52,643 bases of DNA from a virus (lineage: Duplodnaviria > Caudoviricetes): the IMG/VR virus record IMGVR_UViG_3300025137_000058, positions 1 through 52,643 of that record; one strand, 5' to 3'. The notes beneath the pieces are model-generated. The model saw nothing but the letters and a program-made list of their open reading frames with translations, searched no databases and had not been told where the DNA came from. The translations under genes and the position numbers were made by a program. Shown piece by piece: positions 25,636 to 49,962 of this stretch (positions within the stretch are counted from its first letter, which is position 1; every line of letters starts with the position of its first letter).

Positions 25636-26055
25636 ATGATACGAGATGTTAAGACGGGTGAGAACTGTAATATAGTAGAACCTGTAAATCTATATGATTG
25701 TACAATAGGCGACCATTGTATGGTAGGTCCATTTGTAGAGATACAAGGTAATGTTACTATTGGTAATAAAGTAAGAATTCAATCGCATAGTTTCATATGC
25801 GAGAACACACAGATATTAGATAGTACCTTTATAGGTCACGGTGTTATGTTTACAAATGATAAGTTTACAGACGGTAAATTAACTAAAGATTTTCTACCAA
25901 CAAAGGTAGGTTATAGATGTAGAATAGGTTCAAATGTAACTATATTACCCGTTTCTATTTGTGATGATGTTGTGATTGGTGCAGGTTCAGTTGTTACAAA
26001 AGATATCACTAGAAGAGGAGTTTATGCAGGTAATCCAGCAGTGAGAATTAAGTAA
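25636..26055 (+). CDS. Hexapeptide-repeat N-acetyltransferase (WbpD-like)
   Basis: LbH repeats; GHGVMFTND; GAGSVVTKD; GNPA. Confidence 0.88.
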   Translation: MIRDVKTGENCNIVEPVNLYDCTIGDHCMVGPFVEIQGNVTIGNKVRIQSHSFICENTQILDSTFIGHGVMFTNDKFTDGKLTKDFLPTKVGYRCRIGSNVTILPVSICDDVVIGAGSVVTKDITRRGVYAGNPAVRIK

Positions 26056-27005
26056 TGATTGCACTTGTTGGTTATGGTTATTGGGGAAAGAATTTAGCAA
26101 GAGTATTTAAAGATAAATTAAAATACATAATTGATAAAGACGACCATAATTTAAATAAAGCAAAGTATAGTTATGGTAATAATGTTAACTATGATAGAAG
26201 TTTAACGAATGTTTTAAAAACTGATAAAAGTATTAAAGCAATACTAATAGCAACAAAACCCGAATCACATTTAGACATTGCAAAGTTGTGTTTAAGATAT
26301 GGTAAACATATATGGATTGAAAAACCTGTTTGTACAACATACAAACAAGCATTAGAACTACTAAAATACCATGAGAAGACAAATAATAGATTAAGAGTGA
26401 TGGTTGACCATACATTTTTATTTCATCCTGCTATTAATAAATTAGTATCAATTAATATAGGTGAACCTTTATATTACGATAGTCATAGAATTAGTTTAGG
26501 ATTATTTCAAAAAGATGTTGATGTTGTAAAAGATTTAGCAATACATGACTTAGCAATAATTAAACATTTGTATCCCATGATGCAATTAAAGAAAAAAACT
26601 ATAGTTAAACATAATCATGTGAATAATATTCATAATCAAGCAATATTATGTTTAGAATTTGAACAAGGTGGGTTGACAAAACGAAAGTTTACTGCTACCA
26701 TTAATTGCAATTGGGTAAGTCCTGTAAAGAAACGAGAAATAATCTTGACAGGAACAAAAAAATCTGTTATATATGATGACATAGACGTGAATAAAATTAA
26801 AATTTATAATACAGGAAAGATTGGCGAAGATTATAATATAAATCAATTAGGTGATATGAAAAGTCCTAAACTAGATACGACTGAAGCATTAGTCAATGGT
26901 AGAGCAAACTTTTTAGGTGCAATAGATAATGAGTGCAAACCTATGATGTCAGACTTAAAATTTTCTGTAGATTTGATGAGATGGATAGATGATACCATAT
27001 TATGA
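26055..27005 (+). CDS. Gfo/Idh/MocA oxidoreductase (WbpB-like)
   Basis: GYGYWG; IEKP; DLAIHD. Confidence 0.88.
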   Translation: MIALVGYGYWGKNLARVFKDKLKYIIDKDDHNLNKAKYSYGNNVNYDRSLTNVLKTDKSIKAILIATKPESHLDIAKLCLRYGKHIWIEKPVCTTYKQALELLKYHEKTNNRLRVMVDHTFLFHPAINKLVSINIGEPLYYDSHRISLGLFQKDVDVVKDLAIHDLAIIKHLYPMMQLKKKTIVKHNHVNNIHNQAILCLEFEQGGLTKRKFTATINCNWVSPVKKREIILTGTKKSVIYDDIDVNKIKIYNTGKIGEDYNINQLGDMKSPKLDTTEALVNGRANFLGAIDNECKPMMSDLKFSVDLMRWIDDTIL

Positions 27006-28083
27006 CATGAATGAAATTCATAAACCTCTGAAAGACGAGTTTATGAGTCAAGTAAAAGAATTACTGGATACAAACAATTTTGTATTTGGAACAGATAAGT
27101 TCGAAGAAGAATTTGCAGAGTATACTGGTGCAAAATATTGTGTGGGTGTAAATAGTGGTACATCAGCATTAATACTTGCCCAATTTGCATGTGGTGTTCG
27201 ACCTGGTGACTTAGTAAAAACAGTATCTCATACATTTACAGCAACAGTCACAAGTATAAAACATTTAGGTGCTTCACACGAATTTGTAGATATAGATGAA
27301 AAAACTTATTGCATGGATCCAGAAAAATTAACACAAGATTTTAGAACAAAAATTATACTACCTGTGCATATGTATGGTAATGCTTGTGATATGCCTGGAA
27401 TAATCTCTAAGAAATCAACATCTACAATTATAGAAGATTGCTCACAAGCACACGGAACTAGAATAAATGGTAAACACGTTGGTACTTTTGGTAAAGCAGG
27501 TACTTTTAGTTTTTATCCAGGAAAAGGTATAGGTGCATTTGGTGATGCTGGTTGCATTATAACAGATGATGAGGGTTTAGCAATCGAATTAAAAGAACAA
27601 CGTAGTTGGAAAGAAAATGATGTAGGTTTTAATTTTAGAATGGCAAACATTAATGCTAAGTTTATAAGTTTAAAACTAAAACACTATCCTGAAGTTTTAA
27701 AAGCAAAGAAAGAAATAGCACAATATTATGATAAACATTTATCAGATTGTCATGTTAATGATGGTGTAGAGCATAGTTATCATATCTATCCTTTATTACA
27801 TAAAGATAGAGAGAACTTGATTAGGAGATGTAATACTGAATTACAATTAAAAAAACATTACGACAAACCTGTGCATCATAATCCAGCATTTCATTTCACA
27901 TCAGATACATGCACATATTGTAGTGCTAAAGAAATGAAAGATTTTAATTTACCTGTAACAGATAAAGTATCTGCATCACAGGTGAGTGTACCTATTTATC
28001 CAGGTCTAAATAAAGAAGAAGTGATTGATATTTTACAAAAACATTGGAGTAATGGTAATGGTTCATCTAATTCCGTTTTATAA
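26989..28083 (+). CDS. DegT/DnrJ/EryC1/StrS aminotransferase (WbpE-like)
   Basis: NSGTSAL; PVHMYG; EDCSQAHG; SFYPGK..GDAG. Confidence 0.9.
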   Translation: MIPYYDMNEIHKPLKDEFMSQVKELLDTNNFVFGTDKFEEEFAEYTGAKYCVGVNSGTSALILAQFACGVRPGDLVKTVSHTFTATVTSIKHLGASHEFVDIDEKTYCMDPEKLTQDFRTKIILPVHMYGNACDMPGIISKKSTSTIIEDCSQAHGTRINGKHVGTFGKAGTFSFYPGKGIGAFGDAGCIITDDEGLAIELKEQRSWKENDVGFNFRMANINAKFISLKLKHYPEVLKAKKEIAQYYDKHLSDCHVNDGVEHSYHIYPLLHKDRENLIRRCNTELQLKKHYDKPVHHNPAFHFTSDTCTYCSAKEMKDFNLPVTDKVSASQVSVPIYPGLNKEEVIDILQKHWSNGNGSSNSVL

Positions 28084-28891
28084 AGACGCAAATTTTAAAA
28101 TAAAAGAAGCACCAGAAATCATTGACTTTGTCAAGAAAAAGAGATATGATTATCACAAATACTTAGAGTGTTTAACTGAAACATTTTACAGATATAATCC
28201 TGAAGGTAAATTATTATTGTCAACAGATATGACTACCAATCCAGTTAATTATCAAGGTGAATGCTACAGACAAGATACAAGTGATAAAACAATCATACAG
28301 TCTAAAGTATACAATGAAACAAGATTAATTTGTGACGATAATGGTATAGATGAAAACATTATTATGTGTGGTACAGACCACTTAATTAACAGAAAGTTAG
28401 ATAAAATATTTTTAAACCAAGACTTTGATATAAAAATACCTATAAGAAAAACTGCTAGAGTAAACAATGCTATGATAGTTGTTAAAAAGGTAACTGATAA
28501 TGTTAAGAGATTTTTTGAGTACCGATATGAGAGGTTTATATCTGATGAAGATAGCGATCCACATTGGAATTGGTATGGAGACCAAAGAACTTACGATAAA
28601 ATATTAAGAGAAGAATTAAATTTATTACCTGTGCGAGAACCACCTCAAAAGTTTCCTTATCAATTAGGTTCTTATGAGGTCAGAGGTTGTAAAATAAAAC
28701 TCATAGAATACGGCGGAAATGAGTGTGGTAGTTTCGACATATGGCCTAACCATAGAAGAGGATTTGAAGACAATACTTATTTTTACGATTTTAAAGGGAA
28801 GAGGAAAGAATACTTCTTCTCATCATATGAAAAAGAGAGGAGAAATTATGAACGACAAAGAAAAAAAGAAGATATACGAGTGTCACCCTAA
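28058..28891 (+). CDS. Putative glycosyltransferase
   Basis: VNNAM; WYGDQ; FKGKRK. Start chosen by SD spacing. Confidence 0.55.
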   Translation: MVHLIPFYKDANFKIKEAPEIIDFVKKKRYDYHKYLECLTETFYRYNPEGKLLLSTDMTTNPVNYQGECYRQDTSDKTIIQSKVYNETRLICDDNGIDENIIMCGTDHLINRKLDKIFLNQDFDIKIPIRKTARVNNAMIVVKKVTDNVKRFFEYRYERFISDEDSDPHWNWYGDQRTYDKILREELNLLPVREPPQKFPYQLGSYEVRGCKIKLIEYGGNECGSFDIWPNHRRGFEDNTYFYDFKGKRKEYFFSSYEKERRNYERQRKKEDIRVSP

Positions 28892-29141
28892 TACTGGTCA
28901 AATAAGATGGAGATATGTGGGTGAAAACCCAGATGATTATGGTTACCCTAATTATGGTAATATGTTGAATAAGAAAGAAACTTGGGGTAAGATGCCACCT
29001 CCACCATTAAATGAACCAGCAAGAACACCTGATGCTCCTTGGATAGACGAAAGAGTGAATGAAAATAAGAGTCATAAACTATTGAAAGAGGATAAAAATG
29101 ATGAACAAGAAGATAGGCAATTATCTTTTCCCTTCAAGTGA
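28848..29141 (+). CDS. Hypothetical
   Basis: In-frame ATG after SD GAGGAG within ORF 28719..29141. Confidence 0.5.
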   Translation: MNDKEKKKIYECHPNTGQIRWRYVGENPDDYGYPNYGNMLNKKETWGKMPPPPLNEPARTPDAPWIDERVNENKSHKLLKEDKNDEQEDRQLSFPFK

Positions 29142-29739
29142 TATACATTTTGAAAGATGGATATTAGAAGGTGAATATCAAGCAAAACAAAGAGATGCTC
29201 TCTTTGAATTCATGGATGACCGAAGAAAAATAGAATATATCATTGACGTAGGTGGACATGTTGGATTATGGTCAAGACCTATGATGCGAAGAGCAGACAC
29301 AAAATACATTTGGGCGTTTGAACCAAACAAAACAGTAAGAGAGTGTTATGTCTTAAATATGGGTGGATTTGAAAATTATTCTATTTACCCATTTGCTTTA
29401 GGTCACAAAAAAACAAAAGGTTACTTAAATGTAGAAAGTGATAACTCTGGTAATACAAATATACACCCTACAAAAACTGGTAATACTGAGATTAGAACTT
29501 TAGATAGTTTTAACATTAAAAATGTTGATTATATAAAAGTAGATGCTGAAGGTTATGAGTATAATATTGTACAAGGTGCAAAAGAAACATTAGAAAGATG
29601 TAAACCTTATGTTCATCTTGAAATGAAAACAAAAAGAATGCGTCATACGTTTAAAGATTATGCTAAATTATTAAAGACAATGAATTACAAAGAAGTTTAT
29701 AGAATAGGTTGTGAGGTACTATATGATTATAACACATAA
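29098..29739 (+). CDS. FkbM-family methyltransferase
   Basis: IDVGGHVG; FEPN; YIKVDAEGYE..VQGA. Confidence 0.88.
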   Translation: MMNKKIGNYLFPSSDIHFERWILEGEYQAKQRDALFEFMDDRRKIEYIIDVGGHVGLWSRPMMRRADTKYIWAFEPNKTVRECYVLNMGGFENYSIYPFALGHKKTKGYLNVESDNSGNTNIHPTKTGNTEIRTLDSFNIKNVDYIKVDAEGYEYNIVQGAKETLERCKPYVHLEMKTKRMRHTFKDYAKLLKTMNYKEVYRIGCEVLYDYNT

Positions 29740-30544
29740 ATTAGCATGGGATAAATGTTTATCACATCAAATATTTCCTCTTATAGAAAAAGGGTGGAAA
29801 GATGAAGATAGACCTATACACTTCTTTTGGGGATTAGCAGGTAAAAATAGAGGTGAAATAGCGAAGTGTGTGGAGAAACAAGAAGAATGGTATTATATTG
29901 ATATAGGTTATATTACAGACGAAATTACTCGATATCCTGCACCAAAGATTACAAAACCTGATACAACTTACTTTAGAATAGTAAAAGGTGGTTTACACAC
30001 TATAAAAGGTAAAGTAGGTGATGGTAAACGACTGAAAAGATTACAAACAGAAGGTTTAGATGCTGAATTTAAAGGTTGGTATACTGGTGATACAAAACAT
30101 GTGCTAATATGTCCTTCATCACCCACAGTAACACAACAACTTAACAATATGACACAAGAAGATTGGGTGTTTGAAGTTAAAATGGAGTTAGAGAAGCATA
30201 CTGATAGAGAACTTATTGTTAGAAATAAACCTAGACCAGGAAATGAATGGTGGGGAACAAATATTAGAGAACAATTAAAGGATTGTCACTGCTTAGTAAC
30301 AAATATGAGTATTGCATCTGTAGACGCAATATTAAACAGAGTACCTGTAGTAACTGATGGTAGAAATGTGGCATGGGCGGTAGCATCTAGAGAACCAAGA
30401 TTTATAGAAAAACCTTTTAAACCAGGTAAAAAAACGGTAAATGAGTGGTTAAAATTTATTACCGAACAACAATTTACTCTGGATGAGATAGAAGATGGTA
30501 TAGCATATAAATTATTAAAAGAACAAGGTGTTGTGAGTGATTAA
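29723..30544 (+). CDS. Capsule-biosynthesis-like glycosyltransferase
   Basis: YYIDIGY; LICPSS; HTDRELIVRNKP; LVTNMS; QQFT. Confidence 0.6.
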   Translation: MIITHKLAWDKCLSHQIFPLIEKGWKDEDRPIHFFWGLAGKNRGEIAKCVEKQEEWYYIDIGYITDEITRYPAPKITKPDTTYFRIVKGGLHTIKGKVGDGKRLKRLQTEGLDAEFKGWYTGDTKHVLICPSSPTVTQQLNNMTQEDWVFEVKMELEKHTDRELIVRNKPRPGNEWWGTNIREQLKDCHCLVTNMSIASVDAILNRVPVVTDGRNVAWAVASREPRFIEKPFKPGKKTVNEWLKFITEQQFTLDEIEDGIAYKLLKEQGVVSD

Positions 30545-31229
30545 TTTCTGTTGTGTGTTGTATGGAGAAAAATATGGCACAGATTATGTGCAAAATCTAT
30601 ATAATATGGTCAAAAGACATTTAACTGTTGAGCATAAATTTTATGCATTTTCTGACAATGTTAGACTAAAAAAATTAGTAAAAGGGGATATTATCGTAAA
30701 AGAGTTTCCTTTATACGATATGCAAGGTTGGTGGAACAAAATGCAGTTGTTTCACCCAGACAATGGTCTATCAGGTTTAAATCTTTACATGGATTTAGAT
30801 GTTGTGATTCTTAAAAATATAGACTGTTTCGCACAATTTTCAAATAAATCTTCATTTAACATTACATCTGACTTCAATGGTAGAAAAATATGGTATAATT
30901 CTAGTCTAATGAAATGGGATAGTGAAACCATGAAACCTATAATATGGGATGAATTTATTAAGAAAAGAAGTCATTATTACAGACTTCAAGGTGACCAAAA
31001 TGCTATTACAGAATTGCTAAGACAGAATAAGAAGTTTCACCATGAGAATGTAGAGACCTTTCCTAATGATTGGACTAACTCATATAAGTGGTTTGATAGA
31101 GTTGACCCTAGATTTAGTAAGAATCTATGGACTTTTGAGCAAAAACCAGACAGTAAAGTAGCAGTTTTTCACGGATATCCTAAACCTCATCAATCTGAAG
31201 AAGAGTGGGTAAAAAACAACTGGAAATAA
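30537..31229 (+). CDS. GT-A-like glycosyltransferase
   Basis: GEKY..YVQNL; GWWNKM; YMDLDVV; NSS; GDQ; FHGYPKP. Confidence 0.75.
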   Translation: MINFCCVLYGEKYGTDYVQNLYNMVKRHLTVEHKFYAFSDNVRLKKLVKGDIIVKEFPLYDMQGWWNKMQLFHPDNGLSGLNLYMDLDVVILKNIDCFAQFSNKSSFNITSDFNGRKIWYNSSLMKWDSETMKPIIWDEFIKKRSHYYRLQGDQNAITELLRQNKKFHHENVETFPNDWTNSYKWFDRVDPRFSKNLWTFEQKPDSKVAVFHGYPKPHQSEEEWVKNNWK

Positions 31230-31233
31230 AGTG

Positions 31234-31302
31234 TTGACATTTACACCCAATCTGCTATTATAATAGTATACTGATTCGTAACAATAACAAAAGGAAAAAA
31301 TT
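31234..31302 (+). promoter_or_regulatory. Early sigma70 promoter cassette 1 with TGATTCG
   Basis: TTGACA-N16-(TGc)TATTAT..AATAGTATACTGATTCG..AAAGGA RBS. Confidence 0.8.
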
Positions 31303-31527
31303 ATGTCTACTATGTATAATAATGATGATATTTACCAATTAATAAATGAAGACGTTGCACTGGACGTTGATAAAGTTAAAGTCGCCACAGACAAGATTGA
31401 TGTTCAAATGTCGATTTTAGTTGATACCTTGAAGAAAATGCAAGTTAAACTGAACATTCTTCAAGAAGATAATTCAATGATGAAATCAAAACTTGATAGC
31501 ATTGAGCAAGATATTTTATTAACCTAA
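31303..31527 (+). CDS. Small early hypothetical
   Basis: 74-aa ORF behind promoter and RBS. Confidence 0.6.
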   Translation: MSTMYNNDDIYQLINEDVALDVDKVKVATDKIDVQMSILVDTLKKMQVKLNILQEDNSMMKSKLDSIEQDILLT

Positions 31528-31540
31528 TTGAGAGGACACT

Positions 31541-31813
31541 ATGGACTATTCAAAACAATTCAATAAACGAAGAACTGAATTCTTTGCTTCACTAATATCA
31601 AGCATTGATTATAAGTCTTTTAAAAGTCAAGAGGACTATGAAAAGACTATAGAGGGTGTGTATATGACTATGTTTAGACACAATCTAAAAGGTCAATATG
31701 TTTATGAAAACCCTAATCCTAACGCAGACAATGATGATGCGTGGTTAGTTGGGGAAACTTATGATGATGATGACAGGAAAAAAACACTTGACATTATACA
31801 CAATAAGGTGTAA
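31541..31813 (+). CDS. Small early hypothetical
   Basis: 90-aa ORF with SD GAGAGGA. Confidence 0.6.
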   Translation: MDYSKQFNKRRTEFFASLISSIDYKSFKSQEDYEKTIEGVYMTMFRHNLKGQYVYENPNPNADNDDAWLVGETYDDDDRKKTLDIIHNKV

Positions 31814-31850
31814 TATAATAGTATACTGATTCGTAACAAAAGGAAATAAT
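31788..31850 (+). promoter_or_regulatory. Early sigma70 promoter cassette 2 with TGATTCG
   Basis: TTGACA-N17-TAATAT..AATAGTATACTGATTCG..AAAGGA. Confidence 0.8.
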
Positions 31851-32078
31851 ATGAAAAATAATAATGTGAGTGCAAGAACTTTAAATGAAAGAGTTTATTT
31901 AAAACAGACTGCTTATAAGATTTACATGGACTGTCAAGCAGTTATGGCAGGTCAATGCAATACAGAGATATCTATATTAGAAGACAAGTTTGGTGAAATT
32001 GCAGAAAAGTTGAATACAAATACCGAATCACTTTGGGAAAAGTGTGAGTGTATACAAGAACAAAATATCAACGTATAG
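31851..32078 (+). CDS. Small early hypothetical
   Basis: 75-aa ORF behind promoter. Confidence 0.6.
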   Translation: MKNNNVSARTLNERVYLKQTAYKIYMDCQAVMAGQCNTEISILEDKFGEIAEKLNTNTESLWEKCECIQEQNINV

Positions 32079-32091
32079 GAGTAATATAAAT

Positions 32092-32313
32092 ATGGGTATG
32101 ATGGATGATGCATGGCGTGAAACTGTAAAGGATAAGAAAAAAGTGAATGATGAAGATAAAATATTTGATGATGTTTACCTTTCAAAGGTGAAAGAAAGAA
32201 TTCGCACATCTGAAGGTGATTTTACTACTGTAGGTAGTACCGATTTGCAAGAAATAAAAGAAATATTAAGACATCTAATAAAAAAACTTGACAAAATATC
32301 AGGAATAAGTTAA
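32092..32313 (+). CDS. Small hypothetical
   Basis: ATG after SD AGGAG; MGMMDDAWRE start. Confidence 0.55.
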   Translation: MGMMDDAWRETVKDKKKVNDEDKIFDDVYLSKVKERIRTSEGDFTTVGSTDLQEIKEILRHLIKKLDKISGIS

Positions 32314-32322
32314 ACTGATTCG
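32288..32322 (+). promoter_or_regulatory. Early sigma70 promoter 3 with TGATTCG
   Basis: TTGACA-N17-TAAACT, overlapping TGATTCG. Confidence 0.7.
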
Positions 32323-32328
32323 TATATT

Positions 32329-32643
32329 ATGAAAAAATTGAATAAAAAACAAAGATTAGACAAAGCACAAAAAGAACATAGAAAGTTTCTATTATCTATG
32401 GGTCTAACTATCAATAGCAGAAACAAAGTTATAATTAAACAAAGATTAGGAACACCGTTTCCTGATTTGTCTACAAAAGAAACATATAAATTAAGCAATA
32501 ACATATCAGGTATTGGTAGAAAGAAATGGTCTCCTAGTGAACCTTATATTCCTGCTGGTAAGACTGTTGGTATAGGGTACAATAAAGGTACATATCAGTT
32601 AGTTGATGGTTCTGATATAATAACAATGGGGAGAAAAGTATGA
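32329..32643 (+). CDS. Basic hypothetical
   Basis: 104-aa ORF with YNKGTYQ motif. Confidence 0.6.
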   Translation: MKKLNKKQRLDKAQKEHRKFLLSMGLTINSRNKVIIKQRLGTPFPDLSTKETYKLSNNISGIGRKKWSPSEPYIPAGKTVGIGYNKGTYQLVDGSDIITMGRKV

Positions 32644-32852
32644 GCGATTTTAAATTAACAGAGTCCGATTTTGATGATTGCTCTACTATAATATGCTTGA
32701 GTGAAAGAGCAAAAGAATTTTGGAATATGAGAGAGTATTCTAAATTTGTGGTTGTAGGTAATTCTGTGAATAACCTATATGTTATTAATAATTATAATAG
32801 AAGGAAAATTTGTAATGAAATTCGTGAAAATGATATGGATTTTACTAACTAG
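32640..32852 (+). CDS. Small hypothetical
   Basis: 70-aa ORF overlapping the previous stop. Confidence 0.5.
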   Translation: MSDFKLTESDFDDCSTIICLSERAKEFWNMREYSKFVVVGNSVNNLYVINNYNRRKICNEIRENDMDFTN

Positions 32853-33288
32853 TTTAGCACTTGTTAATTGTGCTAGTCGTTCCGAGATAGGTGCAGTAGT
32901 GGGTGGTGCATCAGCGACATACAGTTGTGTAGAATTTTTAAGTAATAATCCTTATGTAGCAGGTGCGTGTGCTATAGCAGGTGCATTTGTTGGTGCAAAT
33001 GCTATGTATAATGATGACCAAGATGTACATAATGCACAATTCGTAGACCATTTAAATAATGCAGGTTCTAGAACACACTATACTAACTGGTTCAATCAAA
33101 AAACTGGAAATAGTGGTATAATAAGAACATCTAATACCTATATGGAAGGTCCACTAGTCTGCAAAGATTATGACTCAACAATAGATATATCTCCGACATT
33201 TCCTATGTACGGATATGGTAAATCTGGTAGAAACGTAACACACGGTGTTGTTTGTCAGTTACCTGATGGAAGATGGGTGCATAGATAA
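32815..33288 (+). CDS. 17-kDa surface-antigen-like (RT0821/Lpp0805) lipoprotein
   Basis: Lipobox LALVNC; glycine zipper; WFNQKTGNSG; CKDY; CQLPDGRW. Confidence 0.7.
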   Translation: MKFVKMIWILLTSLALVNCASRSEIGAVVGGASATYSCVEFLSNNPYVAGACAIAGAFVGANAMYNDDQDVHNAQFVDHLNNAGSRTHYTNWFNQKTGNSGIIRTSNTYMEGPLVCKDYDSTIDISPTFPMYGYGKSGRNVTHGVVCQLPDGRWVHR

Positions 33289-33668
33289 TGAATAACTTTT
33301 TTAAAATAATGTTTGTTGCATTTTTTGTTTTAATTGCAATAATATCACTAGTGAGAGATAGTGATGCTGGTGATGATATACTATATCAAAAAATAGTACC
33401 TTCACAACAAAATGTAGACGGACAACATTGTCTTATAAAAACTATTATCAGACAAAAAGGTGATACTATTACTAAAGAAGAAGTATTAGAGTGTGCTGAT
33501 GGTAGAAATAGATTAGATGGTCCTAGTTATTGGGAAATCTTTGCAGAATTTTACTATAGAGATGTATCTGCTCCTGAATATTGTAGATACTATAGTAGAG
33601 GTAGACATGCATTTAAAAGTGCTGGTAAAACTTGTTTAAAAACTAACGGAAGGTGGGAGATAAAATGA
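33288..33668 (+). CDS. Exported Cys-containing hypothetical
   Basis: N-terminal TM; CRYY..CLKTNGRW resembles the previous gene's C-terminus. Confidence 0.55.
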   Translation: MNNFFKIMFVAFFVLIAIISLVRDSDAGDDILYQKIVPSQQNVDGQHCLIKTIIRQKGDTITKEEVLECADGRNRLDGPSYWEIFAEFYYRDVSAPEYCRYYSRGRHAFKSAGKTCLKTNGRWEIK

Positions 33669-33844
33669 TTAAGAATATTATAATAGTAGGATTACTTGCG
33701 TGGGTAATCTATTTAACAGGTCTGTCAAATTTTTTTGATAGCATACGAACCACGGTTGACAAAGTAGAAGAAATAGTCGATAATAAAGATAAAATTATAG
33801 GCGAATTTAATAATGAAAGTGAAAGTGAGGAAGAAAATGAATAA
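33665..33844 (+). CDS. Small membrane protein
   Basis: MIKNIIIVGLLAWVIYL TM segment. Confidence 0.5.
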   Translation: MIKNIIIVGLLAWVIYLTGLSNFFDSIRTTVDKVEEIVDNKDKIIGEFNNESESEEENE

Positions 33845-34460
33845 ATTTATTATGTTAATAAGTTTAATTGTACTAGCAGGTTGTAGCAGTAAAAATTACT
33901 CTATCAAAAGTGAGAGTGGTAAAGTAGTTAACACTGTACCTAGTTGGTTTATGGCAGATATTAAAGAGTCTAAAGCATGTGACTTATCTATGTGGACTAA
34001 GAAAGATAATAGCAAACAATGTATCTATGGTATGGGTACTGCTGTATCACCAAGTTTAGACCTTGCGATAGAGAAAGCAAAGTTAAAAGCAAAAGCAGAT
34101 TTGGCAGACTTAGTTAAAGGTCAAATGAATAAGCAATCAAAAATATTTGCAAAGGAAGTTGGTGCTAGTGTAAAGAATAAGAAAGTAGCAAATGATTTTG
34201 AAACTGTAACAGTCAACGAGATTAAAGCAACTGTAGTAAAAGGTTATGAAATCTTTGAACAAGATGTTACACTGACTGTTAACGGTAACTACAGAGCATG
34301 GGTAGGTCTAAGATTACCTCTTGGTGAGTTTAATAAGTTGTACGAATACAATGCAGAGGAAATATTAAATGCTTACAAAGTACAAGATAAATCTAAAGAA
34401 GCATACTCTAGTCTTATGAAAAAAGACGAAGGTTCAAATGAAAATAGAAATATTCAGTAA
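33837..34460 (+). CDS. LPP20-like lipoprotein
   Basis: Lipobox LAGC; VPSWF; GTAVS..LAIEKA. Confidence 0.7.
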   Translation: MNKFIMLISLIVLAGCSSKNYSIKSESGKVVNTVPSWFMADIKESKACDLSMWTKKDNSKQCIYGMGTAVSPSLDLAIEKAKLKAKADLADLVKGQMNKQSKIFAKEVGASVKNKKVANDFETVTVNEIKATVVKGYEIFEQDVTLTVNGNYRAWVGLRLPLGEFNKLYEYNAEEILNAYKVQDKSKEAYSSLMKKDEGSNENRNIQ

Positions 34461-34710
34461 ACCTAACTGCATCTATTGTGAAAAGTCCAAGACCTTGTTA
34501 AGAGGTCTTGGATTTAAGTACATTGAGAAGAGTATTAATGACTATGAAACAAAACAGCAATTTCTAGAAGCGATTGGTAAGAGAGTTAAAACTGTACCTC
34601 AAATTAAAATAAATAGTAAACTAGTTGGTGGTTATAATCAATTAGTAGAATACTTTGCTGATAAGGGTAAAGTAAATTTTAAAGGAGAGATTATAAATGA
34701 GCAAAGATAA
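34438..34710 (+). CDS. Glutaredoxin
   Basis: CIYC; TVPQI; VGGY. Confidence 0.9.
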   Translation: MKIEIFSKPNCIYCEKSKTLLRGLGFKYIEKSINDYETKQQFLEAIGKRVKTVPQIKINSKLVGGYNQLVEYFADKGKVNFKGEIINEQR

Positions 34711-34867
34711 TATAATACGATTTCCTAAAATTAATTCAAGAGAAGTTAAATTAAAAGATTTAGCAAAAGATATTGAAGTACAGATGATACAAATAAAAGA
34801 ACAAAGGTCATTGATAGATGAAGAAAAAAAATTAATTCTAGAGAGTATACTGAATGACAAAAGATAA
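34697..34867 (+). CDS. Small coiled-coil hypothetical (absent from ORF track)
   Basis: Manual translation MSKDNIIRFPK..ILNDKR* (56 aa); SD AAGGAG. Confidence 0.6.
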   Translation: MSKDNIIRFPKINSREVKLKDLAKDIEVQMIQIKEQRSLIDEEKKLILESILNDKR

Positions 34868-35324
34868 TGTAATACTATTTCCTGGTAAACCTTTTGATAA
34901 GAAAAAAATAATTACAGACAAAAAAGAAGTACAAAAGATATCAAAAGAAATAGAAGAACAACAAACACGAGAGTTTGTGGAAGCATGTGTTGATGATGTT
35001 GCACTACATTTAATTAGATTTTTCTATGATTTAAAAATACAAGTGAACTCTCCACAATTTACAAGAGATTTTGCTATGGTAATTGATACAATCAGAGGTT
35101 TAGTTTATAGAGATTTTGGTACAAAACATCCATCACAAAAATTAGTAGATGAAATAGTATCACTCTTTTCAAGTAAAACCAAAGGACCTAGTGCAAAAAT
35201 AGATTACAAAAGAATTTTAAAGAATGTAAAAGAAAAGAAGAAAGAAGCATTTAGTAAAACATTAAAAAAAGATTTACAAGAAATTGACGAAAATGATGGT
35301 ATAGGATTTGACCCAGATTTTTAG
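34854..35324 (+). CDS. Conserved T4-like hypothetical
   Basis: MTKDNVILFP start; HPSQ motif. Confidence 0.6.
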   Translation: MTKDNVILFPGKPFDKKKIITDKKEVQKISKEIEEQQTREFVEACVDDVALHLIRFFYDLKIQVNSPQFTRDFAMVIDTIRGLVYRDFGTKHPSQKLVDEIVSLFSSKTKGPSAKIDYKRILKNVKEKKKEAFSKTLKKDLQEIDENDGIGFDPDF

Positions 35325-35332
35325 TATAAATA
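35325..35332 (+). promoter_or_regulatory. T4-type late promoter
   Basis: Intergenic TATAAATA. Confidence 0.7.
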
Positions 35333-35356
35333 CCAATATGAATTGAAGGAGAAATT

Positions 35357-35929
35357 ATGGTAGATAACCGATTTAGAGTAGAAAATTTAAACAACCCACC
35401 TGGACAACCAAAGGGTAAAGACAATCCAAACTTAATATCCAGAAAAAGTATGGAATCTTTTGCAAGAACATCAGGTAAAAGTAGTAAAGCAACATATCAC
35501 GAGATATTAAAAAGAATTAACAATGCAAAAGATAAACCAAAGAAGTTGCAAATATTAAGAGATTATGACAGCGAACCATTAAGAATGTTAATGAAGGGTG
35601 CATTTGACACTCGCATTAAATGGGATTTACCACCAGGAACACCTCCATATAAAGCAAATGAGGCGCCTGTTGGTACACAACATACTTGGTTAGCAGATGA
35701 ATCAAGGAAATTATGGCACTTTTTAGTGGGTGGTAATCCTGGTTTATCGAAGACTAGAAAAGAAACAATGTTTATACAAGTTTTAGAAAATTTATCTAAA
35801 GAAGAAGCAACATTATTGATTAATATCAAAGATAATAAATTGAACAAAGCATATAAAGGTCTAACTGCTAATTTAGTAAAAGAAGCATTTGGATGGAATG
35901 ATGAATTTATGAGAAAAGAAAATGTCTAA
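35357..35929 (+). CDS. Conserved T4-like hypothetical
   Basis: WDLPPGTPPY; RKETMFIQVLE; YKGLT..LVKEAF. Confidence 0.7.
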   Translation: MVDNRFRVENLNNPPGQPKGKDNPNLISRKSMESFARTSGKSSKATYHEILKRINNAKDKPKKLQILRDYDSEPLRMLMKGAFDTRIKWDLPPGTPPYKANEAPVGTQHTWLADESRKLWHFLVGGNPGLSKTRKETMFIQVLENLSKEEATLLINIKDNKLNKAYKGLTANLVKEAFGWNDEFMRKENV

Positions 35930-36056
35930 ATTAACACGATATAAACTAGAAGTTCCAGGTGGTTCATATGAACACACAAACCTTACAGTACTATATTTAA
36001 CTGTATTTTTACATAGATTTACACACTTGATAAAAGACGGTAAATGGATGGATTGA
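35922..36056 (+). CDS. Small hypothetical (absent from ORF track)
   Basis: Manual translation MSKLTRYKLEVPGGSY..HRFTHLIKDGKWMD* (44 aa); coupled to both neighbours. Confidence 0.5.
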   Translation: MSKLTRYKLEVPGGSYEHTNLTVLYLTVFLHRFTHLIKDGKWMD

Positions 36057-36331
36057 TGCGACCAGATAAAGATATAATAAGAGATATCAATGATATCATT
36101 AAAAGACAGATACAACCATCAGTAGAAATGCATGGTGGTGTCGTAACTTTAGAGAAATATGAAGATGGTGTAGCAACTATGTTTATGAGTGGTGCTTGTA
36201 GTGGTTGTGCATCATCTGATTATACTCTCCAACAAGGTATTTTACAGTTATTACAACATTATATACCTGAAATCAAAAACATACAAAAAATAGAAGACCC
36301 TAATTCGACTGTAGACCCATATTTTACTTGA
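36056..36331 (+). CDS. NifU-C/NfuA-like Fe-S carrier
   Basis: IQPSVEMHGG; MSGACSGCASS..TLQQGI..IPEI. Confidence 0.9.
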   Translation: MRPDKDIIRDINDIIKRQIQPSVEMHGGVVTLEKYEDGVATMFMSGACSGCASSDYTLQQGILQLLQHYIPEIKNIQKIEDPNSTVDPYFT

Positions 36332-36395
36332 CATTTTCGCCAGTTATGCTATTATAATAGTATACTGATTCGAAATGATAACAAAAGGAAAAAAT
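36328..36395 (+). promoter_or_regulatory. Early sigma70 promoter cassette 4 with TGATTCG
   Basis: TTGACA-N16-(TGc)TATTAT..AATAGTATACTGATTCG..AAAGGA. Confidence 0.8.
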
Positions 36396-36764
36396 ATGAT
36401 AAACAATGATAAAAAATTAGATGTAGCAATAACAAATTTGACGACATATTGTATTCAAGATTATATAAGATGGTCAACAAATAATGGTGTGCAAAAATTA
36501 AGCGATTATTGTAAAAAAGAAGTTGAAAAGGGTCTTGGATTTAAGGTTAAAAAAGGTTCAAAATACATAAAAATTCTTAGAGAACAAGGTTCACAAGAAT
36601 CTGTTTGGGGATTTATAGTTGCTAGTGAAAATGATAAGAAGTTTCAACTTGGTGATATACTTATGGCGGCAGGTTGGAGAGGTCCAGCGAGAAATAAAGC
36701 AAGAGGAAACGTACTTTCCGGTGACTTTAATAGTAGATGGACTGGTCCTAATTATCTTAATTAG
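36396..36764 (+). CDS. Conserved early phage protein
   Basis: GSKYIKI; SVWGFI; GDILMAAGWRGPA..ARGN; WTGPNYL. Confidence 0.7.
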   Translation: MINNDKKLDVAITNLTTYCIQDYIRWSTNNGVQKLSDYCKKEVEKGLGFKVKKGSKYIKILREQGSQESVWGFIVASENDKKFQLGDILMAAGWRGPARNKARGNVLSGDFNSRWTGPNYLN

Positions 36765-36773
36765 GACTTTTTT
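36745..36773 (+). terminator. Intrinsic terminator
   Basis: gtcctaatta-tct-taattaggac followed by T6. Confidence 0.65.
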
Positions 36774-36774
36774 C

Positions 36775-36830
36775 TTGACAATAGTGAAAAAGTTTAGTAT
36801 AATTATAGTATGATTCGAAAGGGAAAAAAT
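36775..36830 (+). promoter_or_regulatory. Early sigma70 promoter 5 with TGATTCG
   Basis: TTGACA-N17-TATAAT..TAGTATGATTCG..AAGGGA. Confidence 0.8.
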
Positions 36831-37040
36831 ATGACACAAACAAATATGACATTCAATGAAAACTTAGGTTTTCAATTCGAAAGATTTATCAGTGATGAGA
36901 TAGTTCTTAATGGTATAAAAGGTATTCCAAATATACTTGAGATGATTAAAGACACTATTGATAACGGTGACACTGAAGATGCTAAAATGTGGGTATCAGA
37001 ACTACAGAATGAACTACTTGAAAACAACGTGAGAGGTTAA
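36831..37040 (+). CDS. Small early hypothetical
   Basis: ATG after RBS within ORF 36810..37040. Confidence 0.55.
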   Translation: MTQTNMTFNENLGFQFERFISDEIVLNGIKGIPNILEMIKDTIDNGDTEDAKMWVSELQNELLENNVRG

Positions 37041-42183: not shown

Positions 42184-42679
42184 AAACTTTACATTAAGAG
42201 AGATGACAAGGTCACAAACTGCTACTAGAAAAGGACTAGATAATAAACCTTCTGGAACCCACGAAGCAAATTTAGTATTACTTTGTCAAAACATATTACA
42301 ACCATTAAGAGATTATTATGGTAGACCTTTAAGAGTAACATCTGGTTATAGAAGTCCAGAATTATGTGTTGCTATCGGGTCATCAATTAATTCACAACAC
42401 GCAAAAGGTCAGGCGGCGGATTTTGAGATACCAGGTGTATCAAATAAAGATTTAGCAGAACACATCAGAGATAATTTAAGTTTTGACCAATTGATATTAG
42501 AGTTTCATAGTCCAGTAGACCCTATGAGTGGTTGGGTACATTGTTCTTTTAATAACAAAGTTGAAAATAGAAAAGAATTTTTAAGAGCATATAAAGATAA
42601 TGGTAAAACAAAATATGAAATGTATAGTAATGAAGTATTTGCAACTGAAAGTGATATAGTGAGTGGTTCAAAAAAATAA
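42170..42679 (+). CDS. Peptidase M15A (possible endolysin)
   Basis: LSKNFTL; SGYRS; SQHAKGQAAD; DQLILE; WVH. Confidence 0.88.
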   Translation: MELSKNFTLREMTRSQTATRKGLDNKPSGTHEANLVLLCQNILQPLRDYYGRPLRVTSGYRSPELCVAIGSSINSQHAKGQAADFEIPGVSNKDLAEHIRDNLSFDQLILEFHSPVDPMSGWVHCSFNNKVENRKEFLRAYKDNGKTKYEMYSNEVFATESDIVSGSKK

Positions 42680-43049
42680 AACTGATGACCATTTTATTGA
42701 AGAAGATGATTATGTATATGCAGGCAATCATTTAATAGTAGACATATATGGTTACGATAAAGAGTATAGAGATTTTAATCATCTATTAGCAAAAGCATCA
42801 CATCTTGCAGGTGCTAAATTGCTCTACTCATATACACATGATTTTGACAATGGTGGTATTACAGGTGTCGCCATATTAGCAGAATCACATATATCATTTC
42901 ACACTTGGGCAGAGAGAGATTATATTGCATTTGATGTCTTTATGTGTGGTGACACACAACCATACAAAGCAATTAATTTTATCAAAAAAGAATTGAAAGC
43001 AGAAGACGTGAAAATTAAAATAATTAAAAGAGGTAAAATTGCAAAGTAG
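42663..43049 (+). CDS. speD: Pyruvoyl-dependent AdoMet decarboxylase-family proenzyme
   Basis: GNHLIVD; GITGVAILAESHISFHTW; DVFMCG. Confidence 0.85.
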   Translation: MVQKNKTDDHFIEEDDYVYAGNHLIVDIYGYDKEYRDFNHLLAKASHLAGAKLLYSYTHDFDNGGITGVAILAESHISFHTWAERDYIAFDVFMCGDTQPYKAINFIKKELKAEDVKIKIIKRGKIAK

Positions 43050-43407
43050 TTGGGGTTTCCATTTGATATTAGATTGTAAAGGTAGTAAAATGTCTAAAGA
43101 GTTAGTCAAAGATGCTAAATTTATAAAGGAGTTTACAAAGATTTTAGTAGATGGTATTGAGATGAAAGCATATGGTGAACCTATTATAGAACACTTTGCA
43201 ACGCACGAAGAAAATGCATCAGGTTATAGTTTGGTGCAATTAATAGAAACATCAGCAATCACAGGTCACTTTTGTGATATCAATGGTGATTTTTATTTAG
43301 ATATTTTTAGTTGCAAGAGTTTCAGCATTGACATTGCAAAAGAAATAGTGTATAGTTACTTTAAACCTAAATTAATAAGAGAAACATTTTTAACTAGACA
43401 GGCATAA
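43039..43407 (+). CDS. Second, divergent AdoMetDC-family protein
   Basis: WGFHLILDC; GYSLVQLIETSAITGHF; YLDIFSCK; TTG start after SD GAGG. Confidence 0.75.
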   Translation: MQSSWGFHLILDCKGSKMSKELVKDAKFIKEFTKILVDGIEMKAYGEPIIEHFATHEENASGYSLVQLIETSAITGHFCDINGDFYLDIFSCKSFSIDIAKEIVYSYFKPKLIRETFLTRQA

Positions 43408-48141: not shown

Positions 48142-48977
48142 AAAGAGTATTTTGTATTGGTAATGGTGAGAGTAGAAAGGGTGTTAATTTAGACACACTA
48201 AAACCTCATGGTAAAATATATGGGTGTAATGCTATATATCGAGATTATACACCTGACGTATTGATTGCAGTTGACCAAGGTATCATACACGAGATATATC
48301 ATAGTGGATATGCATACAATAACGAGTGTTACTTTAGAAATTGGCACTTACATGATGAAAAGAATTTCAACATAACAGTTTACGGAACTGAAGATAAAGA
48401 GGTGATAGATTTCATAAAGAGTCTAAATTTATTGACAGTAAATAAAAAAGGTAATAGCACAAAGTTTGCTATGGGTGGACCTGCACTATATCAGTTTGCA
48501 AAACAAGTTAAAAAGAATCCAGCAAAATTAAAACAGTATCAAGAATCATTTAAAGCAAAGGTAACTTGGGTTGAAAATGATAAGGTCAATAGTATTAAAG
48601 AAGAGCAAGGTGGTCAGGATTTAGGTTGGGCGGCAGGTTGCACTGCTATATGGTTTGCGATTAGGAATGAAGAACCACAACAAGTTTATTTAATTGGACA
48701 TGATTTAAATAGTAAGACAGATTTAATTAATAATATGTACAAGGGTACACCTAATTATAGTGGAGTATCACATAAAGAAACACCGTCAAATAATTGGTTG
48801 ATACAGTTGAATGCACTTATAAAAGAAAATCCTGATATAGCATTTTATAAAGTAAACAGAGAACCTATTGATAACAATTGTAAAGTAAATAGACAACAAC
48901 CACAATTAAGAGGTCATAAAAATTTAGTGTATATTACATATGAACAATTACAAAGGAGCATTGACAATAAGTGGTAA
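48138..48977 (+). CDS. Conserved hypothetical (Rossmann-like, IGNGESR family)
   Basis: IGNGESR; YGCNAIYR; YLIGHD; NMYKGT.NY. Confidence 0.6.
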   Translation: MKRVFCIGNGESRKGVNLDTLKPHGKIYGCNAIYRDYTPDVLIAVDQGIIHEIYHSGYAYNNECYFRNWHLHDEKNFNITVYGTEDKEVIDFIKSLNLLTVNKKGNSTKFAMGGPALYQFAKQVKKNPAKLKQYQESFKAKVTWVENDKVNSIKEEQGGQDLGWAAGCTAIWFAIRNEEPQQVYLIGHDLNSKTDLINNMYKGTPNYSGVSHKETPSNNWLIQLNALIKENPDIAFYKVNREPIDNNCKVNRQQPQLRGHKNLVYITYEQLQRSIDNKW

Positions 48978-49015
48978 TTTTGATATAGTAGTACACATTA
49001 TGAATCATATAAATA
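48961..49015 (+). promoter_or_regulatory. Tandem sigma70-like and late promoters upstream of gene 32
   Basis: TTGACA-N17-TATAGT, then TATAAATA at 49008-49015. Confidence 0.7.
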
Positions 49016-49068
49016 GTAATGATACCGATAATATAGGTAACACGAATATAATAATATAAGGAGAATAT

Positions 49069-49962
49069 ATGGATTTCGAAACATTAAAACAATCATCTAG
49101 CAACTTTGATGCTTTAACCAAAGCATTAGATGAAAAACTAAACACAGAAGATAATAAAGGTGATAAGAGTAAATATCAAGACGATAGACTCTGGAAACCA
49201 GAACTTGATAAATCAGGTAATGGTTATGCAGTATTAAGATTTTTACCTGCATCTGAAGGTGAAGACATGCCATGGGTAAGATTATGGTCACATGCATTTC
49301 AAGGACCTGGTGGTTGGTTTATCGAAAACTCTCTTACAACTCTTAATCAAAAAGACCCGGTGTCAGAAGAAAATTCAAGACTTTGGAATACTGGTGTTGA
49401 TTCTGACAAAGAGATTGCAAGAAAGAGAAAAAGAAAATTATCATATTATGCAAACGTCTATGTTGTGAGTGACCCTAAAAGACCAGAGAACGAGGGTAAA
49501 GTATTCTTATACAAATTTGGTAAGAAGATATTTGATAAGATTACTGAAGCAATGAAACCACAATTTGAAGACGAATCACCAATCAACCCATTTGACTTCT
49601 GGAAAGGTGCAAACTTTAAACTGAAGATTAGAAAAGTTGATGGTTATTGGAACTACGATAAATCAGAATTTGAGGGTGTAAAACCTGTTGCTGAAGACGA
49701 TACAAAGATAAAAGCAATATGGCAGAAACAATATCCTCTAAAAGAATTCTCTGACCCTAGTAATTTTAAATCCTATGATGAACTCAAAGAGAAACTGAAT
49801 AGGACAATTATGGGTTCGAGAAGTGCTACAGACATCAGTCAAACAGACCTCCCACCTAAGACTAATGGTGTAGCAAAAGTTGAAGAAGTTAAAACTTCCA
49901 ATGCTAGTGAAGGTGAAGACGATACTATGTCATATTTTAGTAAGTTAGCAGACGAAGATTAA
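49069..49962 (+). CDS. gp32: T4-like single-stranded DNA-binding protein
   Basis: DDRLWKP..GNGYAVLRFLP; HAFQGPGGW.IENS; FGKKIFDKI; acidic tail YFSKLADED. Confidence 0.95.
   Translation: MDFETLKQSSSNFDALTKALDEKLNTEDNKGDKSKYQDDRLWKPELDKSGNGYAVLRFLPASEGEDMPWVRLWSHAFQGPGGWFIENSLTTLNQKDPVSEENSRLWNTGVDSDKEIARKRKRKLSYYANVYVVSDPKRPENEGKVFLYKFGKKIFDKITEAMKPQFEDESPINPFDFWKGANFKLKIRKVDGYWNYDKSEFEGVKPVAEDDTKIKAIWQKQYPLKEFSDPSNFKSYDELKEKLNRTIMGSRSATDISQTDLPPKTNGVAKVEEVKTSNASEGEDDTMSYFSKLADED

Follow-up and report, generated by a model that had tools for sequence, protein, structure and literature searches.

Candidate GcrA boxes at predicted early promoters of sigma70 type in a T4-like relative of SAR11 phages

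Background

The early promoters of phage T4 are strong, close to the sigma70 consensus, and stand before small early ORFs of unknown function in repeated mobile cassettes. Such promoter/stem-loop cassettes are copied and homogenised by recombination. T4 favours its own promoters through injected and early proteins, and no T4 early promoter is known to bear a host-activator or methylation site. Host adenine methylation of a short promoter site sets the activity of the mom promoter of phage Mu (Dam, OxyR) and of promoters of phage P1 (GATC). SAR11 is the most abundant marine bacterial group, and phages are a major cause of its mortality.

In Caulobacter, the consensus of the sigma70 cofactor GcrA is given as "TGATTCG or, more broadly, YGAKTCK" (PMC4647560, PMC7987155), which agrees with the preference for TGATTCG-type sites that the initial annotation of this DNA had stated. 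All seven positions of the heptamer are contacted in the GcrA crystal structure (PMC5887438), GcrA boxes have their centres at -20, at -30 or anywhere from +5 to +30, counted from the start site, with the two boxes of mipZ at +4 and +12 (PMC9976885), and methylation changes the affinity of GcrA for duplex DNA only about two-fold in vitro (PMC4647560). The extended motif was not found in Brevundimonas (PMC7987155), so the preference for TGATTCG is not universal. Methylation of GANTC or GAWTC has been reported in SAR11 (PMC8919816, PMC9516812, PMC3973325), and the specificities of both types of enzyme found in SAR11 include GAWTC (PMC8919816). In addition, two reports describe CtrA boxes in phages of Alphaproteobacteria, associated with "lytic deferment" (PMC9437464), and a GcrA homologue encoded by the Caulobacter phage phiCbK (PMC7987155).

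Predicted early promoters and their boxes

The whole stretch of DNA analysed here (the window; 52,643 nt) is assigned to an uncultured marine myophage of T4-like type. Its closest relatives in culture infect SAR11, which is the presumed host group. Five predicted early promoters (P1-P5) and the promoter of gene 32 have the following layout.

31234..31305, + strand: P1, with -35 TTGACA at 31234-31239, extended -10 (TGc TATTAT) at 31253-31261 and box TGATTCG at 31272-31278
31290-31295 and 31303, + strand: P1 leader, with AAAGGA at 31290-31295 and the ATG of a 74-aa ORF at 31303
31788..31853, + strand: P2, with -35 at 31788-31793, -10 TAATAT at 31811-31816, box at 31827-31833 and the ATG of a 75-aa ORF at 31851
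32288..32331, + strand: P3, with -35 at 32288-32293, -10 TAAACT at 32311-32316, box at 32316-32322 and ATG at 32329
36328..36398, + strand: P4, with -35 at 36328-36333, extended -10 TATTAT at 36350-36355, box at 36366-36372 and ATG at 36396
36744..36833, + strand: P5, with a terminator-like hairpin at 36744-36768, then -35 at 36775-36780, -10 TATAAT at 36798-36803, box at 36811-36817 and ATG at 36831
48961..49071, + strand: gene 32 promoter, with TTGACA at 48961, -10 TATAGT, variant box TGAATCA at 49001-49007 and the gp32 ATG at 49069

Judged by sequence alone, P1-P5 all combine TTGACA with a spacer of 16-17 nt and a -10 that scores 10-12 of 12 against the consensus (12/12 for the TATAAT of P5), and can be classed as putative sigma70-type promoters. 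The initial annotation had described five TTGACA promoters that each carry TGATTCG; all ten coordinates are correct, and the heptamer lies downstream and on the sense strand. At 5/5 promoters it is the exact optimum of the GcrA consensus, and it also fits the broader YGAKTCK. Start sites were placed 7 nt past the -10, and all box positions relative to the start depend on this placement. For P1, whose -10 and start (about 31268) were assigned from spacing, the box would thus lie at about +4 to +10. Box centres would fall at about +7 in P1, P2 and P4, about +4 in P5, about -4 in P3 and about +15 in a class found among relatives. The P3 box, which shares one base with the -10 (the last base of the latter), would span about -7 to -1, and its centre would fall outside the published range of GcrA-box positions. 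P3 sits inside the 3' end of the upstream ORF, and its ATG at 32329 lacks a Shine-Dalgarno sequence.

A longer sequence that had been noted at three promoters was recovered as a 20-mer common to P1, P2 and P4 (31259-31278, 31814-31833 and 36353-36372), a cassette repeated before small early ORFs. Because these three promoters have one cassette in common, the five boxes of the window amount to about three independent contexts, and related phages add many more. The ORFs downstream of boxes are ORFans of 69-122 aa, nine of ten without a PHROG match and one, the 122-aa ORF downstream of P4, matching PHROGs of unknown function. A stem-loop or terminator was found near one of the five promoters only (P5).

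The promoters of primase and gene 32 had been said to lack TGATTCG, and the exact heptamer is indeed missing from both, although near-variants are present. TGATTCA follows the primase promoter (13297) at a distance of 49 nt, within the ORF, and the gene 32 promoter, before a gene whose identity as gp32 was confirmed, has its variant box TGAATCA at the canonical offset of 40, followed by a late-type TATAAATA. In the relative L015, the orthologue of the gene 32 promoter carries the exact TGATTCG at the place of the variant box.

Across both strands, the window contains ten copies of TGATTCG, compared with 2.23 on average (sd 1.48) over 100 dinucleotide shuffles, none of which reached ten. The enrichment that the initial annotation proposed to look for against a Markov background is evident on the + strand, with six copies against 0.9-1.1 expected (orders 1-3), and GANTC overall is scarce (73 observed versus 120.4 expected, sd 9.4). 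Since 82 of the 83 genes called in the window are on the + strand (the lone exception is probably a spurious ORF), all five boxes are sense-oriented. A sense orientation of all phage boxes is not obviously needed by a DNA reader on a flexible linker.

Conservation among related phages

Among the window and IMG/VR relatives (L011-L039), 68 unique contexts of TGATTCG were found, of which approximately 40 (counted by eye) lie in promoter cassettes, all sense, with at least seven different left flanks and at least six right flanks. When promoters were defined without reference to the box, TGATTCG ranked first among the 7-mers that follow the -10, occurring in 37 of 53 unique promoter-like cassettes, a set in which L011-L034 had been retrieved using the box-containing 20-mer; no flanking cassette 7-mer occurred more than 31 times. 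At loci retrieved solely by protein similarity, 15 of 19 cassettes carry the box. The heptamer occurs at four distances from the -10 (10, 11, 7 and 18 nt). The P4 box is present in 5/5 close orthologues with differing spacer sequence, the P3 box in 3/4 (lost in one), and the ten P1 orthologues include four with the exact box and one with a one-base variant. In most relatives the flanks vary on both sides while the box stays, and this persistence marks the heptamer itself as under selection.

The identical 20-mer is present in 24 IMG/VR stretches, and a contig from an RNA library fuses the -35 of P5 to a P4-type -10, indicating cassette shuffling. In a sister sub-lineage (L126, L128, L129, L132 and L133) the cassette flanks are retained with no GANTC at the place of the box, and L131 has TGATTCA there; TGATTCG was not found in the six sister-sub-lineage loci, with two promoters apiece. 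The box is therefore dispensable for basal promoter function. The initial annotation held that conserved flanks without GANTC would mean simple cassette duplication; this pattern occurs in part, in the one sister sub-lineage, with the box also lost from one P3 orthologue, and the reverse holds in most relatives.

Relatives in culture are limited to Mosig and HTVC008M, which match in patches at approximately 68% identity. Mosig has 14 copies of TGATTCG, none at promoters, and HTVC008M has none in 147 kb. Conservation is thus seen in most IMG/VR relatives but does not extend to promoters of the cultured pelagimyophages. A phage-borne ccrM or gcrA, for which a search had been advised, was not found in the window, in five related fragments (all at most 37% complete), in Mosig or in HTVC008M, so whether incoming DNA is methylated would be decided by the preceding host.

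GcrA, CcrM and the box in SAR11

Both host factors are encoded in the presumed host group. GcrA was detected in 5/5 Pelagibacter genomes (128-134 bits), as was an N6_N4 methyltransferase of CcrM size (PF01555 match of 226-234 bits within an open frame of 356-377 aa), suggesting that the host, if it is SAR11, has both GcrA and CcrM. All six base-contacting residues of SAR11 GcrA (R33, N34, I37, G38, H41 and R42) are identical to those of Caulobacter GcrA, and its sigma-interacting domain is also alignable. With every contact residue for TGATTCG retained, SAR11 GcrA should bind the phage and host boxes in any case.

The heptamer also occurs at SAR11's own promoters. Upstream of clpX, 26/26 Pelagibacteraceae genomes have a sense TGATTCG whose flanks vary; in 25 of them it precedes the ATG by 2-14 nt, often without a Shine-Dalgarno sequence. 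The distance from CTTG to the box is 38 or 39 nt in 19/26 genomes (mode 39 nt); of the 51 unique phage contexts, 27 have a distance of 39 nt and six a distance of 40 nt. At clpP, a GANTC lies no more than 30 nt from the ATG in 18/26 genomes, and all 18 sites fit YGAKTCK on one strand, ten sense and eight antisense, varying by lineage. This strand flip implies a reader of double-stranded DNA and argues against reading at the RNA level. The clpX box is not class-wide, as YGAKTCK lies within 150 nt upstream of clpX in 6 of 29 other Alphaproteobacteria. Strain HIMB4 has far fewer GAWTC sites than expected (794 versus approximately 1938), yet 8 of 13 TGATTCG copies are intergenic against 1.48 expected (intergenic DNA is approximately 4% of the genome), including sites upstream of clpX, recA and proteorhodopsin. 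The proposal that the phage may use the host CcrM/GcrA system is partly supported, by the presence of both host genes, the identical base-contacting residues and the boxes at host promoters; the phage GcrA that it also allowed for was not found in the phage DNA searched.

A proposed mechanism and its alternatives

P1-P5 probably form a GcrA-box class of sigma70-type early promoters. In the proposed mechanism, each early promoter would have one GcrA box just past the -10, at about +1 to +18 from the placed start site. In Alphaproteobacteria, GcrA travels on sigma70-RNA polymerase and reads TGATTCG with its N-terminal domain, preferring boxes whose GANTC adenines are methylated by CcrM, which improves polymerase binding and open-complex formation. 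The phage would imitate the layout of the SAR11 clpX promoter (CTTGA, approximately 39 nt, TGATTCG), and because the phage promoters share this layout, GcrA-loaded polymerase would be drawn to the early genes upon DNA entry. That SAR11 clpX has this heptamer at an equal distance suggests that the phage probably borrows a host switch to start infection. We infer that GcrA would read the boxes in this host, that these would be methylated and that early transcription would be tied to the cell-cycle state of the host; cell-cycle or epigenetic coupling of phage early transcription is plausible.

Among described systems, the closest appear to be Caulobacter promoters of the PmipZ type, which likewise combine a sigma70 core with a single asymmetric m6A-GANTC box of the YGAKTCK class, a few to approximately 20 nt past the start, read by a sigma70-tethered GcrA monomer (PMC4647560, PMC9976885, PMC5887438); the phage reader and methylation are putative. 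Unlike PmipZ, the phage element belongs to a phage genome of virulent type instead of a chromosome and recurs at each of the early promoters found, with a P3 copy that overlaps the -10, the host would be SAR11-like, and the boxes are candidate GcrA and methylation sites. Like T4 early promoters, the cassettes of the window are repeated, close to the sigma70 consensus, placed before small early ORFs and shuffled among relatives, and P5 follows a hairpin, whereas four of the five lack the stem-loop of T4 cassettes. As in the CtrA-box phages and phiCbK, the phage would be plugged into the alphaproteobacterial cell-cycle circuit, but through a putative cis element for host GcrA, with no phage gcrA found, rather than through CtrA sites or a phage-encoded regulator. 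If methylation matters, host adenine methylation of a short promoter site would set phage promoter activity as in Mu mom and P1; those cases involve Dam and GATC, relief of repression, and late or special genes, in contrast to the CcrM/GANTC methylation, activator recruitment and whole early class proposed here.

Three other explanations were weighed. T4 RegA and RegB act on early messages, and the heptamer, as UGAUUCG in the 5' leaders of early mRNAs, might likewise be a linear RNA signal, through which an RNA-binding protein or a ribonuclease, from either host or phage, sets translation or decay. The phage boxes, all sense and between the -10 and the start codon, often adjoin the AAAGGA ribosome site, and the SAR11 clpX box lies close to an ATG that frequently lacks a Shine-Dalgarno sequence, as such a signal might. 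This is nevertheless quite improbable, since the antisense clpP boxes (8/18) still fit the consensus on the other strand although a flip would destroy an RNA signal, the P3 box overlaps the -10 and would lie outside the transcript from P3, and an exact match to a known DNA-protein consensus would be coincidental. The leaders are also unstructured (36 unique leaders folded; mean MFE -1.2 kcal/mol, mean z +0.66 versus shuffles), and pairing with the free 3' tail of SAR11 16S rRNA is negligible (-0.3 kcal/mol, rank approximately 9,500 of 16,384 heptamers).

The box could instead be the operator of a DNA-binding protein other than GcrA, either a phage early or middle regulator that silences early promoters or another SAR11 factor that also controls clpX. 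The conservation of the motif in phage and host, the still putative role of GcrA as reader in SAR11, the ORFans downstream of boxes, which could include regulators, and the lack of the box at most other alphaproteobacterial clpX promoters would all accord with such a protein, which we consider unlikely because a phage-only regulator leaves the conservation at host clpX (26/26) unexplained and SAR11 GcrA has all base contacts for exactly TGATTCG. That the box is a functionless passenger in a promoter cassette copied and homogenised by recombination is very hard to credit: the shared 20-mer, the shuffled contig and the boxless sister lineage fit this view, but the heptamer is retained at four -10 distances where both flanks differ, outnumbers every flanking cassette 7-mer, and recurs with the same spacing in host clpX promoters, which hitch-hiking cannot yield.

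Implications

If P1-P5 are indeed read by GcrA, placing a site for a host sigma70 cofactor within the promoter would differ from the takeover route of T4 and cost less. Should methylation play a part as well, P1-P5 would be the first class of early promoters with an epigenetic CcrM input in a phage of lytic type. A search of literature outside subscription journals showed, among the titles listed, none on phage promoters with GcrA boxes. We tentatively raise the possibility that an entire clade of phages abundant in the ocean has its full early programme wired into the host GcrA/CcrM epigenetic cell-cycle circuit, with the methylation of encapsidated DNA as a one-generation memory. Early transcription would then be best in GcrA-holding (replicating) cells, virion DNA methylated by the CcrM of the previous host would also be favoured, and the state of the last host would set, via this methylation imprint, the vigour of the next infection; loss of the box in the sister lineage would represent escape from dependence or a host shift. 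As a by-product, a sigma70 promoter with TGATTCG at fixed spacing could help to assign uncultured phages to alphaproteobacterial hosts, and clpX (26/26 genomes), clpP, recA and proteorhodopsin emerge as a candidate SAR11 GcrA regulon.

TGATTCG at the early promoters

The initial annotation had placed a TGATTCG heptamer, here termed the box, behind the TTGACA hexamers of five sigma70-type early promoters (P1 to P5), and all ten coordinates proved right, each box lying on the + strand 3' of its TTGACA.

Early promoters of the window, with coordinates, strand and distances
P1: TTGACA at 31234, box at 31272, + strand; TTGACA to box 38 nt, box to ATG 31 nt
P2: TTGACA at 31788, box at 31827, + strand; TTGACA to box 39 nt, box to ATG 24 nt
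P3: TTGACA at 32288, box at 32316, + strand; TTGACA to box 28 nt, box to ATG 13 nt
P4: TTGACA at 36328, box at 36366, + strand; TTGACA to box 38 nt, box to ATG 30 nt
P5: TTGACA at 36775, box at 36811, + strand; TTGACA to box 36 nt, box to ATG 20 nt

With start sites inferred 7 nt past the best-fitting -10, the boxes of P1, P2, and P4 would occupy approximately +4 to +10 and that of P5 approximately +1 to +7, and the P3 box shares the last base of the -10. The heptamer is also enriched in the window as a whole, with 10 occurrences on both strands vs 2.23 expected (at least 10 in 0 of 100 shuffles) and 6 vs approximately 1 expected on the + strand only, whereas GANTC as a whole is depleted (73 vs 120). 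This geometry recurs at the gene 32 promoter (48961), where a variant box, TGAATCA, stands at an offset of 40; the exact box occupies this position in the relative L015. The genes behind P1 to P5 are small ORFans, nine of ten having no PHROG match and PHROG and Pfam searches giving no informative name, which is consistent with early genes. Six public RNA runs contain small shares of the window, and contigs from four metatranscriptome runs aligned as short pieces, some spanning P2-P3, none of which defines a start.

Conservation of the heptamer in related phages

Exact copies of the 20-mer common to P1, P2, and P4 were found in 24 IMG/VR stretches. Together, the window and the relatives L011 to L039 contain 68 unique TGATTCG contexts, approximately 40 of which (counted by eye) lie inside promoter cassettes, all in the sense direction and with diverse left and right flanks. 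When promoters were defined without the box, TGATTCG was present in 37 of 53 unique cassettes and was the top 7-mer (runner-up 31), a count biased upward by the retrieval of L011 to L034 with the 20-mer, which includes the box; several of the 16 box-less cassettes are false positives within genes. Among loci retrieved by protein similarity alone, 15 of 19 cassettes carry the box. The distance from the end of the -10 to the box is 10 nt in 24 cassettes, 11 nt in seven, 7 nt in three, and 18 nt in three. Orthologues of P4 retain the box in all five close relatives (69-97% protein identity) despite altered spacers, and those of P3 in three of four; at the P4 position of 38 more distant relatives, TGATTCG was found in none. 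The heptamer itself is under selection, not merely the cassette, and TGATTCG at P1 to P5 is very probably a functional cis element.

Affiliation of the phage

The window is an entire IMG/VR record, linear, with an estimated completeness of 37% and a GC content of 31%; of the 83 ORFs called, 82 are on the + strand. In a blastn search against 50,697 phage records, only the Pelagibacter phages Mosig EXVC030M and HTVC008M (Kyanoviridae) matched, patchily and at approximately 68% identity. These matches, together with a gene content that includes gp32, a primase-like protein, both ribonucleotide reductase subunits, and a sugar-modification gene cluster, indicate an uncultured T4-like myophage akin to SAR11 phages, whose host is presumably a SAR11 bacterium. 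T4-type late promoters (TATAAATA) are also present in the window.

GcrA, CcrM, and boxes in SAR11 genomes

Published work gives the binding consensus of the sigma70 cofactor GcrA as "TGATTCG or, more broadly, YGAKTCK" (Haakonsen et al., PMC4647560), and in the crystal structure R33, N34, I37, G38, H41, and R42 contact all seven TGATTCG positions (PMC5887438). GcrA is described as a monomer tethered to sigma70 that activates from boxes at -20, -30, or +5 to +30, those of PmipZ lying at +4 and +12 (PMC9976885). Methylation has only an approximately two-fold effect on duplex binding by GcrA but matters for activation (PMC4647560), and in Brevundimonas no extended motif was reported (PMC7987155). 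For SAR11, a CcrM homologue, GANTC or GAWTC methylation, GAWTC depletion of the genomes, and GANTC depletion in approximately half of pelagiphages have been published (PMC3973325, PMC8919816, PMC9516812).

All five Pelagibacter genomes tested, which were found via a SAR11 probe, encode GcrA (128-134 bits), and in each an open frame of 356-377 aa contains a match to the methyltransferase family PF01555. The GcrA of strain HIMB4 aligns with that of Caulobacter over both domains, and the six base-contacting residues are identical. In the HIMB4 genome, GAATC (428) and GATTC (366) fall well below the approximately 970 expected for each, while GASTC is undepleted. Of 13 copies of TGATTCG or its complement in this genome, eight are intergenic (approximately 4% of the genome) vs 1.48 expected under an order-2 model of intergenic DNA, an excess ranking 20th among 2,327 heptamers. 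Intergenic boxes lie 5' of clpX, recA, proteorhodopsin, a TPR protein, an unknown 547-aa protein, and a small lysine-rich ORF, and one lies upstream of clpP in antisense orientation. At approximately 457958-457974 of the same genome, two inverted TGATTCG copies with 3 nt between them lie 3' of a TTGACA promoter and 5' of a 29-codon lysine/arginine-rich ORF.

A sense TGATTCG is located just 5' of clpX in all 26 Pelagibacteraceae genomes in which clpX was matched over its full length (77-100% identity), amid otherwise variable intergenic sequence. Measured from a conserved CTTG, this box lies at a distance of 38 or 39 nt in 19 genomes out of the 26; of 51 unique phage contexts, 27 have a distance of 39 nt and six one of 40 nt. 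The phage promoters thus copy a host promoter layout. Upstream of clpP, a GANTC lies no more than 30 nt from the ATG in 18 of the 26 genomes, and all 18 sites fit YGAKTCK on one strand (10 sense, 8 antisense). The clpX box was rejected as a class-wide trait, YGAKTCK occurring within 150 nt upstream in only six of 29 other Alphaproteobacteria, and its layout appears specific to Pelagibacteraceae within this sample. The clpX and clpP boxes constitute a candidate GcrA regulon of SAR11, of which the literature excerpts consulted contain no earlier description.

Alternative explanations

The heptamer is unlikely to be a passenger of simple cassette duplication, for which the initial annotation had named flanks conserved without GANTC as the telltale sign. 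Most relatives keep the heptamer despite changed flanks, but a sister group does keep flanks without GANTC: among 10 loci with the P1 position, four have the exact box, one has TGATTCA, and five near-identical loci have no GANTC. In these box-less loci and their kin (L126, L128, L129, L131, L132, and L133), TGATTCG is missing from both strands of the 4-5 kb available for each, and the two promoters retain the core cassette but not the box. The box is thus an add-on that individual lineages can lose. In the cultured relatives, Mosig has 14 TGATTCG, all in coding-like contexts and none at a promoter, and no GANTC at its early promoters; HTVC008M has none on either strand of its 147,284 bases, where a reversed control word occurs three times. 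An 81-nt blastn query for the cassette in cultured phages gave chance-level matches only (E >= 0.02). In T4-like marine phages further removed from the window, different words are conserved directly 3' of the -10, indicating that such words are common in the group and that the peculiarity here is the identity of the word. In distant T4-like loci (L049, L051-L056, L058, L062, L063, L071, and L076), whose clades also have such words, a conserved GAATC-containing word lies approximately 30 nt 5' of the -35 of an orthologous early promoter.

A role in RNA found little favor. As an alternative Shine-Dalgarno sequence, the heptamer was rejected for its negligible pairing with the free SAR11 16S 3' tail (-0.3 kcal/mol, approximately rank 9,500 of 16,384), and leader structure was rejected because 36 unique leaders (mean -1.2 kcal/mol) folded no better than shuffles (z +0.66). 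Moreover, the clpP box flips strand between lineages and keeps its consensus, which points to reading on double-stranded DNA rather than RNA.

Proposed mechanism

Recognition by GcrA is the reading that we favor, and TGATTCG at the early promoters is somewhat more probably a GcrA box than some other element. Under this model, the host would already contain GcrA-loaded sigma70 holoenzyme, and a box lying a few nucleotides downstream of the start would offer an additional holoenzyme contact in the closed complex; this contact is proposed to let phage early promoters outcompete ordinary host promoters. A larger effect would be expected with methylated box adenines. The coupling of early transcription to methylation or the cell cycle, as put forward in the initial annotation, is plausible but less likely than not. 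Searches of the window, Mosig, HTVC008M, and five related fragments (15-37% complete) for ccrM and gcrA were negative, all uncultured records among them being fragments; with no CcrM-family methyltransferase found in these eight records, incoming phage DNA would carry only the marks of its previous host. P1 to P5 join two known kinds, phage early sigma70 promoters and GcrA-box promoters, and form no new category; a literature search judged by titles returned no paper on phage promoters with GcrA boxes.

Additional observations

In run X3, an RNA-library contig fuses window position 36779 to 36345, so that 12 other letters separate the P5 -35 region from a -10 and box of P4 type; it comes from a relative whose promoter cassette is put together differently. 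The MAG G001 has one contig carrying an RNR gene 81% identical, and encodes a GcrA whose relatives are titled "Rhodospirillaceae" or "Rickettsiales". It was rejected as a guide to the phage host, the two contigs examined being a likely contaminant of 54% GC and a contig of the host, neither of them the phage contig. The MAG (0.9 Mb) is AT-rich apart from its contig C57 (L364; 18.5 kb, 54% GC), which was probably binned there in error.

Immediately 5' of P1, the sugar-modification cluster (26055-31229) encodes a GFO/IDH oxidoreductase, a DegT-type aminotransferase, and an FkbM-type methyltransferase, with neighbours that are glycosyltransferases by Mosig annotation. Its target might be the virion, the host surface, or DNA, and DNA modification, if true, would be relevant to box reading. 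Two coding-like intervals, 42679-43090 (410 nt) and 28891-29098 (206 nt), are without an ATG-started ORF in the crude gene call and may represent genes with non-ATG starts or frameshifts.
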